A stretch of DNA of 64,000 bases. Origin: Eledone cirrhosa. Lineage: Eukaryota. Location: the NCBI GenBank assembly GCA_964016885.1, contig OZ024745.1, forward strand, positions 44,020,001-44,084,000. The letters are read 5' to 3'. The notes under the pieces were generated by a model. The model worked only from the letters and a program-made list of their open reading frames with translations, searched no databases and was not told where the DNA came from. Below, piece after piece: positions 29,700-51,412 of this stretch. The translations under genes and the position numbers were made by a program. Position 1 is the stretch's first letter; every line of letters begins with the position of its first letter.

Positions 29700-29903
29700 A
29701 CGTTATTCCGGTTGAATCGGAGGTAACCACAGTAAGTAAGGTACTCAATACATTGCAGAGTATAAAAGTTTTAATATAGATGAGATTCTACAGGACTAGA
29801 ACTGTTTCATTCTTTAGAAATCATCAGGAATCTCAGAGATTCCTGATGATTTCTAAAGAATGAAACAGTTCTAGTCCTGTAGAATCTCATCTATATTAAA
29901 ACT
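29700..29903. mobile_element. Perfect fold-back hammerhead mini-element, family H2
   Basis: 68-bp arms 29767-29834 and 29836-29903 with a 1-nt loop. Unduplicated tail at 29700-29766. (TA)n on both sides. Confidence 0.9.
29836..29888 (+). ncRNA. Type I hammerhead ribozyme (identical copy on minus strand at 29782-29834)
   Basis: GAGATTC-CTGATGA-tttc(taaa)gaat-GAAA-cag(ttctagtc)ct-GTA-GAATCTC. Perfect 7-bp stem I, predicted cleavage after GUA. Confidence 0.85.
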
Positions 29904-30141
29904 ATTATATATATATATATATTATATATATATTATATATATATATATATATATTATATATATATATATAATATATATATAATATATATATATATATAAT
30001 ATATATATATAATATATATATATAATATATATATATATAATATATATATATATATAATATATATATATATAATATATATATTATATATATATATATATAT
30101 ATATATATATATATATATATATATATATATATATATATATA

Positions 30142-30495
30142 TTTAAAAGTTAAACAAGGTTCAATGAATAAATCAAAGAATGAGTTTTACAATAGATTGG
30201 AAGCACTCAACAGTTATGGTTTTCCAGAGTAATTAATATTAATTCAAAATATTAACAAAATAGATATTCTTGTGATCAAGTATATTTTATTATACATATT
30301 TCAGAGGTACTGAGTTAAGTTCAACAGTACGTCCTCATCAGATAAAATAAGATGATGCATGACATACCCTGACATAGTAGATGGTTAAGATTCAGTCTAC
30401 CATGACTGAATCTTGTATAATAAAATATACTCTGAAATATGTATAAAATATACTTGATGACAAGAATATCTATTTTGTTAATATTTTAAATTAAT
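30142..30495 (-). mobile_element. Hammerhead mini-element family H3 with rearranged inverted arm
   Basis: Homologous to 48735-48990. Partial inverted copy at ~30415-30495. (TA)n on both sides. Confidence 0.8.
30283..30349 (-). ncRNA. Type I hammerhead ribozyme
   Basis: TATTTTAT-CTGATGA-ggacgtactg(loop)cagtacctct-GAAA-tatgt-ATA-ATAAAATA. Perfect 8-bp stem I. Confidence 0.85.
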
Positions 30496-30807
30496 ATATA
30501 TATATATATATATATATATATATATATATATATATATATATATATATATATATATATATATATATATATATATATATATATATATATATATATATATATA
30601 TAACGTCTTCACGAACCAGAATATCGTCTTCCTGTTTTCTTTCGGTTGCAACGTTTCTCGAAATATTTACTTCTACGTTCACAGATTAAAATTTTTAGTG
30701 TCAGAATATCCCATGTATGTTGAAAGCAGCTATTCTTTGCTTAAACTTTAATCTGTTCTTATAACAAATATATATATATATATATATATATATATATATA
30801 TATATAT

Positions 30808-31078
30808 AACGAAGGAGATGTGGTAAGGAACCAGGTGGACCATAACGCACCAAAGTACTCAATACCTAGGGTAGTAGAGTGGGTAATAGGAACCAGTAAG
30901 ACCCCAACGGCTGAGCTCAAGCCGTTTCGACGACTAATTCTGGACTAAATGAAAATTTATCCTGGTATTTAAATCCCTTGAGAAGCTCGGCTATTTAAAT
31001 ACCAGGATAAATTTTCATTTAGTCCAGAATTAGCCGTCGAAACTGCTTGAGCTCAGCCGTCGGGGTCTTACTGGTTCC
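30808..31078. mobile_element. Fold-back mini-element family H4 (3' half of a hammerhead)
   Basis: Arms 30889-30974 and 30993-31078, tail 30808-30888. GAAA-c(t/g)gcttgagctcagcc-GTC is present but CUGANGA is not. Homologous to 48526-48711. Confidence 0.8.
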
Positions 31079-31952
31079 GATATATATATATATATATATA
31101 TATATATATATATATATATATATAGAGAGAGAGAGAGAGAGAGAGAGAGAGAGAGAGAGAGAGAGAGAGAGAGAGAGAGCGAGAGAGAGAGAGCGAGAGA
31201 GAGAGATAGAGGGAGGGAGATGCTTTGTACGACTTTTGGAGGAAGGAGTGACCAGAAGTACGTTGTTCGGTATTATTGCGAAAATGTGTAGCAGAGAATT
31301 CCGCGTGAATTAACAGCTCAGGAGGAAACTGCTTAACTCGAAGATTCATTGACCATCGTTCTTCTCAACGCTCCGTTTACTTGCCATTTGTTGATCTACA
31401 GTTAGATGAATAGCGCACAAAGGGTTAATGTTTATTGGCAACAAGTTTTTTTTATAATAAAAGACGGGTTAAAGCGACCTACAATGTATCTGTGTATATA
31501 TATATCAAGTAAGAATATTTTCGAAACAGCGAGCGGGTTTGAAATTATTATAAATGTAAGCTATCGCCGTATTTTGACTAAAGAAATTAAAGAAATTATT
31601 TAGCCTGGTAGTGGGGTTAAGAACCCTCGGAGAAATGGAAAAAGATGAGTATTGACGTACATTGACGTACATATATATATGTATATATATATATATATAT
31701 ATATATATATATATATATATATATATATATATGTGTGTGTGTGTGTGTGTGTGTGTGTGTGTGTGTGTGTGTGTGTGTGTGTGTGTGTGTGTGTGTGTGT
31801 GTGTGTATATATGTGTGTGTGTATGTATGTATGTATATATATACATATGTGTGTGTGTGTGTATATACATATATTTATATGTGTATATTTATATATGTGT
31901 ATATGTGTATATCTATATATGTGTTTGTATACATGTATATATATATATCTAT

Positions 31953-48711: not shown

Positions 48712-48879
48712 ATATATATATATATATATATATATTAAAGTCTTAAACAATATTCAATGATTATGTCAAAGAATGAGTTTTACAGTAGATTGGAAGCACT
48801 CAACGCTAAAATAATTTTCTGGAGTTATTAATATTAAAATATAAGTATTAATAAAATAGATGTTCTTTTGATAAATTAC

Positions 48880-48932
48880 ATTTTATTATACATATTTCGG
48901 ATGTACAACAGTACGTCCTCATCAGACAAAAT
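48880..48932 (-). ncRNA. Type I hammerhead ribozyme (family H3, element ~48735-48990)
   Basis: ATTTTGT-CTGATGA-ggacgtac(tgtt)gtacatcc-GAAA-tatgt-ATA-ATAAAAT. Confidence 0.88.
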
Positions 48933-50584
48933 ATAATGATACATGACATACCCTGAGATGTTAAATGATTAAGATTTAATCAAGGTAGTGATTAACCCGA
49001 GAGAAAATTTTACTTATATCCTATTTATGAGAAAATGCGAAAACGTAATAAATTCATTAGAGAAAGTATGAGTAAGAAAATTGTTGCTTAATGTAACTGT
49101 TCTAGAGATTTTAAAATGTATGATACTACGATATATCTAGGAAAACATCTCATGAATCATAACAGCCAGTGATAGCCACTGGAAAGGGATTTATAAAGAG
49201 GGGAAAATAAAGTGTGGGGGGGGGGGGTCGAAAGTTAAACGGTTAAATTTGAAAATATTTAATTTATAATATTAGGGTGAAGACTCCAGATTTCAGGATT
49301 ATTTGCTGGTTATTTATATATTATTTATATAAATTCGATAAGTGTGTTATCATTTCTAAACTTCTGAATTGTGAGAGTAACAATTAAAGGATTTAGCTGG
49401 CACATAAAGAATGAAATATTATACTGTTGATTATTTACCTAAATTCAAACTTTAACAAATTACCAACATATTAGGTATGTAAAGCTTTTGAAGTACTTAT
49501 TGTTATAAATATTTAAATAACTATTATGTATATAGGTATATATTAATGAGCCAGTATGTTTAAGGTAAATAATAACGACGAAGATAAAAATAAAATAAGA
49601 TAATATATTGAAGGATGTTAAGGATAAATATATACCTATGTATAACTGGGTGTAAATTATTCTTCAACATATTATTAGATACAGGGATGTATATATATAT
49701 ATATATATATATATATATATATATATATATATATATATATATATTAGGTATTATTAGTGTAGTATACTTTAGGTGAATGATAACAGTTATAATTTTATCA
49801 ACGTATCACATTTAAATACATATATATATATATATATAGGAAAAACAACAATGAGTGCATGGATAATACAGAGTTCAAAATAATGTTTATAATAATTTTT
49901 AGTTTGGATATTTTCTATATATTTGAATCATATATATAGAAATGTGGTAGGTATATTTAAGAATATTTAAAAATATATAAAATATAATATATAACTACAT
50001 ACATATTATAATACATTATATTAGAAATAAATAAGAGATCGAAAGCAAAAAATTCACATTTATATATAAGTTTGAATCCGTCTCAAATTTTAGATTTTAT
50101 AGTGCAGTAAATATATTTAAAAGAAATATATGCTATATTATACTATAAATAATAGATCAGAAACTCATTAAAAATTTAGAGTTATAGATAAGTTTCATAA
50201 AAATTTATGGATTGGGTATTAAACTAAAATTTAAAAGAGATCACAAATGTATTAAAAATTCACAGTTAAATAAATTCCGTAAATATGTAAGGATTAGGTA
50301 TTGTACTAAATTATAATCATAGATAGGAAGATAGATAGAGAAATAAGGAAATAAAGAAATGATGGTATTGATTAAAGTTAACAAATAATGTTGTGTGTAT
50401 CAATGTTTAGGCATGTTAATTGAAATATTGTCATTCATTCTAGCGTTGTTTCTTCTATAGATAGTTATAAAATAAAGCAATATTAAAGGCCATTAATGTT
50501 TTTTACTGTTGATTATATATTCCTGGTAACCGAGTTGTTATTGGTTTGGTGTAATTGTTTCTTTCTTTCTCGTTTTATGTGAGG

Positions 50585-50970
50585 TTAAAAAGGTGGACGT
50601 AGCTTTATGAAGGCAACTAGAGAATAATTCATTTTTTTTGTTAATTAGGGTCTCATAATTATTAATAATCAACATGGTCTCCATTGTACAGAGCGTATAT
50701 TTGATATACTAGAGTTGCGGTAAATTTCACAGTTCCGAAGTTTTGTCCAAAGAATGGAGTATTTTAAATTCTTCTCTTTTAAAGACCATATGAGCTGTGA
50801 TAAAGACGTGGATGATTTCCTCTTAGAGTTCGAGAATGAGCATTTATGGTTCGCAAAACGAGCCTTGAATGTGGACGAGGTTGATCCAATGTAATTGTAT
50901 GTTTTTTTATCAGTTTTTACGGTGCATTTATAAACCAAATTACTATCTAAACAATTATTATCTAAAAAAT
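50585..50970 (-). pseudogene. Penelope-like element GIY-YIG endonuclease, 5'-truncated and frameshifted
   Basis: LDNNCLDSNLVYKCTV..YIGST..FKARFANHKCSF..STSLSQLIWSLK..ILW. After a frameshift near 50695 it continues LCTMETMLI..LINKKNELFSSCLHK, fitting the PLE endonuclease pattern C--E..LN---E....C-H. Confidence 0.85.
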
Positions 50971-51007
50971 TATATATATATATATATATATATATATATA
51001 TATATAT

Positions 51008-51412
51008 AATATACGATCAAAAGATGGTTAAAAGAGTTCCATGTATTTCATTATGCGCATTTCAAAAACAAATATCATCATGAGATGACATTTGCGTTTT
51101 CGTCAGATAAAATAGGGAGACATGATATGAAGGTTAAAAAACACTTGTGAATAGTGCAGTTTTGAATCAACTGCACTATTCACAAGTGTTTTTTAACCTT
51201 CATATCATGTCTCCCTATTTTATCTGACGAAAACACAAATGTCATCTCATGATGATATTTGTTTTTGAAATGCACATAATAAAATACATGGAACTCTTTT
51301 AACCATCTTTTGATCTTATATTATTTATACTCCAGTCCCACAAACTGTTGAGTGCTACTTATCCGATATCTGCATTGTTTTATTGTACTACAATAAAACT
51401 CTCCTCCTACAT
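51008..51412. mobile_element. Fold-back hammerhead mini-element family H6
   Basis: ~154-bp arms 51008-51161 and 51169-51322, tail 51323-51412, (TA)n flanks. Confidence 0.9.
51216..51286 (+). ncRNA. Type I hammerhead ribozyme (mirror copy on minus strand at 51044-51114)
   Basis: TATTTTAT-CTGACGA-aaacacaaatgtcatc(tcat)gatgatatttgttttt-GAAA-tgcac-ATA-ATAAAATA. The minus copy has palindromic stem III ATGCGCAT. Confidence 0.88.

Follow-up and report, generated by a model that had tools for sequence, protein, structure and literature searches.

Why should short insertions from divergent repeat families each carry the same small RNA hairpin close to where their inverted arm ends? The question is raised by a 64,000-nucleotide (nt) stretch of the Eledone cirrhosa genome (assembly GCA_964016885.1, contig OZ024745.1, positions 44,020,001 to 44,084,000, forward strand; hereafter the window, to whose numbering coordinates refer). 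Here the original prediction placed a conserved, covarying hairpin with a UU bulge at the boundary between arm and tail of apparently unrelated families. The hairpin is half of a pair, a real duplicated cis-element of Hydra-clade Penelope-like elements (PLEs) that accounts for both ends of their insertions and is undescribed as far as searched. Its motif, RCUC-[Y..R stem-loop]-UN-GAGY-RC, lies in the 5′ untranslated region (UTR) of these retrotransposons, between the hammerhead and the start codon. The first and second hairpins of the pair are termed H1 and H2, with site A just 5′ of H1 and site B just 5′ of H2.

The motif occurs in the 3.0-Gb genome beyond chance expectation, since forward matches far exceed those of the reversed pattern: 21,025 against 42 with a UU bulge, and 29,150 against 162 with A, C or G as the second bulge base. 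The bulge is therefore UN rather than a nearly invariant UU; non-UU matches outnumber UU matches genome-wide, and 28 of the 30 top relatives of the 51.3-kb window copy have UA. On its own, the loose form ACTC-N-TTGAGT shows no enrichment across 59 random stretches of 10 kb (23 vs. 22), and enrichment requires both the Y..R closing pair and the following RC. Clustering of 137 matches gave 29 groups, 21 of them with element context; eight single-copy matches lacking such context were excluded from the family analysis. When the window is searched with a covariance model built from other loci, the five main and four weaker hairpins first described rank as the top nine matches, and sequence inspection likewise confirms their positions. 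The remaining two of 11 matches at E<0.1 (53184-53210, minus strand; 57861-57884, plus strand) have no hammerhead, arm or tail around them and are probably due to chance. An Rfam scan of the window gave no match at the gathering score, hammerhead included.

RNAalifold returns the proposed fold unprompted from an alignment of 23 of 28 family representatives, omitting families 6, 8, 14, 15 and 21, which have the longest loops or are doubtful. The covariation score of this alignment is 0.502, compared with 0.220 for shuffled and at most 0.232 for slid partners, and double changes are found in four of seven pairs, bearing out the proposal of a covarying cis-element. That the inner stem varies yet keeps pairing also holds in an independent metagenome set, where inner pairs 1 to 3 are Watson-Crick in 67/70, 39/65 and 28/40 cases, against 37.8, 18.3 and 10.2 expected. 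Every bulge in that set sits on the sense strand's 3′ side, and a conserved unpaired RCU follows the stem. Single hairpins are weak, at about -2 to -12 kcal/mol.

Full-length host elements (loci L185 and L191) contain a single 743-aa open reading frame (ORF), identified by motif inspection as a reverse transcriptase (RT) followed by a C-terminal GIY-YIG endonuclease. In comparison with section 11 of Craig 2021 (PMC8557442; cited throughout for the parts covered), family 1 has RWR, a variant of RWK, and DKT in place of DKG, while L185 and L191 have a CxCX5C linker, with CxxC and CxH near the endonuclease end and no CCHH; by that paper's criteria the elements therefore belong to the Hydra clade. 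Two ORF fragments had no Pfam match, which fits the divergence given there. Insertion is into (TA)n targets, as is characteristic of the clade. The family 1 unit of about 3.5-4.2 kb, long owing to its 3′ UTR, misses the published tendency towards <3 kb, which is a tendency and not diagnostic. A hammerhead-type core is present in families 0, 1, 3, 4, 6, 8 and 9, and family 2 (the family of the 30.9-kb window copy) has no canonical one.

Nine families are linked to Hydra-clade ORFs approximately 31-56% identical to that of family 1, and the description of the families as unrelated must be dropped; the DNA upstream of H1 is mostly unalignable between families, with no match in 17 of 21 family pairs. 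Long inverted arms at L124 and L137 contain a Hydra-type ORF (79,379 first-look candidates genome-wide). Five other PLE families, from a GIY-YIG family search, were rejected as hairpin partners, being without the motif; model matches at E<0.2 among 10 loci of these non-Hydra PLEs are nested short Hydra-type copies. An apparent link between a PLE and the hairpin at L032 was rejected as well, the PLE stopping before the hairpin. TN-GAGCACT occurs six times in the Craig 2021 supplement, in four Hydra consensi and in two others without an evident hairpin, although line breaks may hide matches. At L165 and L171 a non-Hydra PLE carries, roughly 45 nt from its 3′ end, a similar-looking hairpin that contains an internal loop, and other PLE clades may use two-site signals of their own. 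Copies of the L140 type consist of a short piece between two TA runs.

The second hairpin is seen where a pseudo-long terminal repeat (pLTR) runs into the next ORF: the tail ends and, after 6-9 nt, a second copy of the motif follows, its outer pair being G-C. Downstream of H1 by 55-99 nt, H2 stands about 15-80 nt before the start codon, and the tandem pattern has 1,218 genome matches against five when reversed (a long-spacing tandem search, swamped by satellite, is excluded from the counts). The order hammerhead, site A, H1, tail, site B, H2, start codon, Hydra ORF is found in families 0, 1, 2, 3, 6, 7 and 9 and in the family of L245. The arm does end at H1, as the original prediction held; what it missed is that H2 marks the end of the tail. 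The tails of families 0, 1, 3, 4 and 6 contain a further hairpin of variable sequence, placed after H1 and before site B (e.g., window 51356-51412).

Both hairpins are also present in units without an evident coding region. Family 8 is a 1.3-kb tandem unit with H1 and H2 and no ORF match, and family 4 forms 191-211-nt tandem units that keep the hammerhead, H1 and H2; at L284 and L285 both inverted arms exceed one unit, as expected if the template is circular or multimeric. Retrozyme-like tandem units of these sizes, with all three features kept, were observed at L284-L287 and L298. Tandem non-coding hammerhead units, which characterize non-LTR retrozymes, are found at L284-L286 and L298 and not among the window copies. 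Two satellites also contain the motif: a long array at L119 and L259-L274 (G000:C1, ~14.235-14.274 Mb), with a 58-bp unit built on a family-2-like H1 preceded by a TATATAT run, and a 53-bp satellite at L256-L258 with another hairpin variant.

The pair is conserved in other organisms. A profile of 43 homologues was used to select the best 80 of 517 metagenome loci, 54 of which have at least 150 nt of 5′ UTR. The strict motif is present in the 5′ UTR of 46 of these 54 and in two or more copies in 28, compared with 0/54 inside the ORF, 0/54 reversed, 1/54 antisense and 5/2700 shuffles; among non-redundant marine metagenome Hydra-type elements the motif is found in 42 of 47, with two or more copies in 27. 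Hairpin spacing is 55-83 nt (with one artefact of 0), and H2 lies 15-75 nt before the ORF. Bulges of 70 hairpins are UU (50), UC (11), UA (6) or other (3), T stands at -6 in 44/70 and A at -5 in 41/70, and there is a TA-phased box at -6 to -3. Six ends are joined to a microsatellite at H1 or H2 and two more stop there without a clear repeat; apart from three ends elsewhere, the remaining elements read through or reach the contig end. A model built solely from the E. cirrhosa genome recovers the metagenome pairs (20 loci, selected after viewing), and the ORFs of motif-bearing elements are as little as 31-39% identical. Two metagenome loci have a shifted motif with GAGA in the 3′ strand (L378, L381) and, in L378, a U-A outer pair, a further compensatory variant. 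Read by eye, the six Hydra consensi of Craig file S7 contain the exact motif in three (coral Hydra-2_Amil; sea cucumber Hydra-1_Ajap and Hydra-2_Ajap); Hydra-1_Ajap has it twice in its 5′ UTR, at a distance of about 60 nt, and the sea louse consensus has a degenerate form. A single-protein metagenome scan and a viral-contig scan were both without matches.

The hairpins stand in a fixed register with the ends of the insertions. With one natural copy per family as reference, and A and B defined as within 20 nt before H1 and H2, 251 of 265 (TA)n-joined 3′ ends map to a site (117 at A, 134 at B, 14 elsewhere), so that endpoints mapped over many copies, as had been proposed, are non-random; satellite loci (L119, L256-L274) and the duplicate L001 are excluded from the end, end-pairing and arm-similarity counts. 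Counts for random stretches and window combined are 24 A ends, 28 B ends and five others. Two-ended insertions combine A with B in 69 of 73 cases (A+A one, B+B none, three with another end), and the one-ended tail expected of PLEs is likewise present in 69 of the 73. This A+B rule holds in 31 of 33 insertions at loci chosen neither by hairpin nor by tail, and in 12 of 12 ORF-bearing family-1 insertions with both ends visible, out of 20 loci; in these 12 the long arm ends at A in eight and at B in four, and either arm can thus be the longer. For each of the 12 family/site combinations the modal junction interval spans -6 or -7, sharing 1-7 nt with the TA repeat, and a TA-phased box lies at about -6 to -3 before the hairpins. 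In eight families the inverted arm stops 5-9 nt short of the hairpin (mode -7/-8). Of 92 inverted repeats close to a hairpin, 56 have their end within -20..+5, the remainder being, as read from the list, mostly neighbouring elements or internal hairpins. In 102 of 108 cases an insertion's two arms resemble one another more than they resemble other copies, reflecting the same source RNA or locus, or later conversion. At L186, L201, L202, L214 and L216 the A arm carries the ORF and the tail is on the short B arm alone.

Within the window, each of the nine hairpins lies in a short element within (TA)n made up of an inverted arm, a hammerhead-type core, the hairpin and a 35-80-nt tail. The arm is missing at 35.8, 15.5 and 48.8 kb, and the predicted closeness of arm end and hairpin does not extend to these copies. 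Ranges in brackets include the following RC.

15541-15560 (15539..15560), minus strand: H1 of a relative of family 4, in a short truncated copy without an arm.
27596-27615 (27596..27617), plus strand: H1 of family 1, within an insertion at 27416-27678 (A end 27416, B end 27678).
29743-29761 (29741..29761), minus strand: H1 of family 4, a family tied to a Hydra ORF and a reduced H2.
29696..29905, minus strand: two-ended insertion of family 4 in (TA)n, with a site-A inverted arm, hammerhead core (29805-29827), H1 and tail to site B.
30205-30230 (30203..30230), minus strand: H1 of family 3.
30142..30493, minus strand: two-ended insertion of family 3, with A end 30493, B end 30142 and hammerhead core 30299-30341.
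30857-30880 (30855..30880), minus strand: H1 of family 2.
30808..31079, minus strand: two-ended insertion of family 2, without a canonical hammerhead core.
35785-35808 (35785..35810), plus strand: H1 of family 5, with a tail of about 76 nt to (TA)n and no arm.
45707..45802, plus strand: family 9 copy, a hammerhead core and then a site-A end in (TA)n; tail-less, stopping some 7 nt short of H1 (end position counted manually).
48149-48168 (48149..48170), plus strand: H1 of family 1 with a UC bulge, in an insertion at 47854-48232 with hammerhead core 48045-48085.
~48639-48664, plus strand: degenerate H1 of family 2, a tenth instance, in an insertion at 48528-48710 (position counted by hand).
48798-48825 (48796..48825), minus strand: H1 of family 3.
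48735..50965, minus strand: 5′-truncated Hydra-clade copy of family 3, with a GIY-YIG fragment (50574-50965), 3′ UTR, hammerhead core (48895-48925), H1 and tail to site B.
51329-51353 (51329..51355), plus strand: H1 of family 0, with a UU bulge where most relatives have UA.
51008..51412, plus strand: two-ended insertion of family 0, with arm 51009-51321, hammerhead core 51224-51270, H1 and tail.

The truncated copy at 48735..50965 joins the 48798 hairpin to a Hydra endonuclease fragment within the window itself, and is 88% identical to L224 over 2283 nt. The short palindromes of the window appear to be mostly truncated insertions of such coding elements, and short copies of this type lack H2 because the insertions stop before it. 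Other features of the window include a near-perfect 386-bp palindrome (37326-37711; 99.5%) formed by the 3′ end of the PLE family of L170, with neither tail nor H1-type motif, and a 543-bp palindrome (55888-56430) with a canonical hammerhead core in each arm and no H1. A long interspersed nuclear element (LINE) at 31953-35121 (minus strand), which we take to be RTE-like, has endonuclease and RT ORFs of 346 and 727 aa, with fragments at 43776-44062 and 48318-48479, and positions 599-9997 are taken up by 9.4 kb of tandem repeats, each unit about 34 bp long.

How the elements are built, where their ends fall, the A+B rule and the conservation are direct observations. The reading that probably explains them is that each hairpin positions one RT-endonuclease just 3′ of a start site; at a UAUA box about 6 nt upstream of each hairpin, one broken end of the (TA)n target would anneal and prime a cDNA. 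The endonuclease would cut both strands of the (TA)n target; each target 3′ end would pair with the short UAUA before one hairpin and prime a cDNA running 5′-ward, away from its own hairpin; and the two cDNAs, each shortened at random, would be joined head to head. The A-primed cDNA would form the inverted arm without a tail and the B-primed cDNA the opposite arm with H1 and tail. As the arm primed at B includes H1 and the tail, the tail would equal the distance between the hairpins. Two protomers could act on one RNA, or on two RNAs from the same source, and the template would be a tandem or circular RNA because H1 and H2, lying in the 5′ UTR, must be downstream of an ORF to prime it. Of the roles first suggested for the motif, a binding or priming signal for RT fits best, whereas a template boundary halting the inverted copy fails at the five loci with the ORF on the A arm.

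This failure concerns the fold-back model, in which one cDNA, started at the end of the tail, turns back on itself and serves as template until synthesis stops at H1. Many short insertions are indeed near-perfect palindromes and their arms share source variants, but with the ORF on the A arm and the tail only on the B arm neither arm can be a copy of the other, and fold-back is thereby ruled out at these five loci; tail-less A-ended copies exist (window 45.7 kb), and the same register of H2 to site B is left unexplained, making this explanation very improbable. Alternatively, the hairpins could act in DNA, with RT starting further downstream and the endonuclease cutting back the cDNA, or an intermediate, to about 6 nt from each hairpin ahead of its joining to (TA)n. 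Identical end positions would result, the G-U sign of folding in the RNA strand is weak, the tail is put down to resolution by the endonuclease in Craig 2021, and Frangieh 2024 (PMC11167929; again for the parts covered) cites earlier work in which the tail is needed for endonuclease recognition. Against this, the tail ends of the Poseidon element are RT start sites in vitro (Frangieh 2024), the constant 3′ side of the bulge and the conserved unpaired RCU speak for RNA, and sequence 3′ of H2 is almost never found at ends (one case); trimming is an unlikely explanation.

A decidedly small chance is given to the hairpins serving the RNA itself, through protection, circularisation, cis packaging or translation of the uncapped hammerhead-cleaved RNA, with AU-rich boxes alone setting the ends. 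Their position between hammerhead and start codon, H2 being so close to the latter, would suit such a role, but the UTRs are AU-rich throughout while nearly all ends keep a fixed register to the hairpins, the A+B rule needs two distinct, coupled signals, and non-coding units keep both hairpins. The hairpins may nonetheless have an additional role besides end setting. That they reflect shared ancestry or chance without function is counted as refuted and retains almost no probability: in its favour are the kinship of the families and the small size and low stability of the motif, but two copies with compensatory changes persist across ORFs 31-39% identical and unalignable flanks, with near-zero controls.

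Several points weigh against double priming at the hairpins. Binding and priming are predictions from sequence, and the Poseidon protein starts at RNA non-homologous to its target (Frangieh 2024), unlike the microhomology proposed here. Free-energy folding of six junction RNAs forms both hairpins in at most two, with z-scores of -1.1 to -2.4 and cross-pairing of H1 with H2 often preferred; the fold would therefore need protein. The excess of G-U over A-C, a sign of a fold in the RNA strand, is weak (8 vs. 5 in this genome, 14 vs. 6 in the metagenome set). The outer stem and Y..R were part of the search patterns, making their conservation in this genome partly circular, and kinship among relatives inflates the shuffle tests. 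H2 is reduced in family 4 to the outer stem alone, of 4 bp with a compensated third pair, and for family 5, represented by the 35.8-kb copy, two dedicated searches recovered neither H2 nor a junction with an ORF. One insertion end (L289) lies 3′ of H2 and breaks the two-site rule, three metagenome ends are away from both sites (L307, L317, L343), 5 of 47 metagenome clusters have no motif, and the Hydra-1_Obim and Hydra-1_Amil consensi, read by eye, show no clear copy. Gene conversion, too, could make the arms of an insertion alike.

In L1 twin priming both target ends prime cDNA and produce an inversion, the second start being opportunistic and the segments non-overlapping. In the elements described here both starts would be fixed by a hairpin, and the arms overlap. 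The tail and the inverted 5′-truncated copy of PLEs are known, and their origin is described as unresolved in Craig 2021. Hydra-clade elements in that paper resemble those of E. cirrhosa in the single RT and C-terminal GIY-YIG ORF, (TA)n targets, putative hammerhead, partial tandems, inverted 5′-truncated copy and one-ended tail; differences are the size of family 1 (about 4 kb), tails of 55-99 nt rather than 30-40, and one family without a canonical hammerhead core. The motif itself stands in the published Hydra consensus file, and the parts covered describe no hairpin. The Poseidon protein cuts and extends both strands and is a predicted dimer; in the Anolis carolinensis element two start sites flank the tail and RNA 3′ of them is required (Frangieh 2024). 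Two internal RT start sites downstream of the hammerhead and flanking the tail would be common to both systems, whereas Poseidon starts lie in an AC-rich stem-loop without target homology, and no binding motif is defined in the parts covered. By eye, the Poseidon template has a 3′-bulged hairpin of other sequence just after the +111-118 site, with no visible duplicate.

Circular PLE templates have been proposed previously (Cervera and de la Pena 2014, PMC4209133, in the part covered). Non-LTR retrozymes are short tandem non-coding hammerhead units stemming from the pLTRs of PLEs (Cervera and de la Pena 2020, PMC7229834; Li et al. 2026, 10.64898/2026.07.22.740005; parts covered of each); L284-L286 are alike, and the window copies differ in being single truncated insertions without H2. 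The covered parts of both retrozyme papers name no cis-signal for the PLE enzyme, which H1 and H2 would supply. The covered part of an Octopus vulgaris repeat paper mentions neither Hydra nor the hairpin. As the original prediction supposed, the motif appears to be undescribed: the pair was found neither in Rfam nor in the papers searched, with subscription papers, Repbase and Dfam outside the search.

Taken further, and with somewhat better than even confidence, Hydra-clade PLEs would undergo programmed double priming: on a circular or tandem RNA, the two hairpins in tandem would be recognized by a telomerase-like RT-endonuclease acting as a dimer, each protomer priming one cut (TA)n end at a fixed distance from its own hairpin. 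This one rule would yield the pseudo-LTRs, the inverted arms and the one-sided tail, and the hammerhead with H1 and H2 (<200 nt) would be the minimal signal by which retrozymes borrow the enzyme. A concrete, testable mechanism for the PLE tail and inverted copy is offered by a small motif that is duplicated, covaries and keeps a constant register to the two DNA ends, and the hairpins are candidates for the signal behind the two start sites mapped without one in Frangieh 2024. The pair is likewise a candidate cis-signal linking retrozymes to PLEs and, with at least 50,000 strict matches in this genome, a marker with which to annotate Hydra elements and their non-coding riders. If true, this mechanism would represent RNA-structure-directed choice of start sites in the closest relatives of telomerase.

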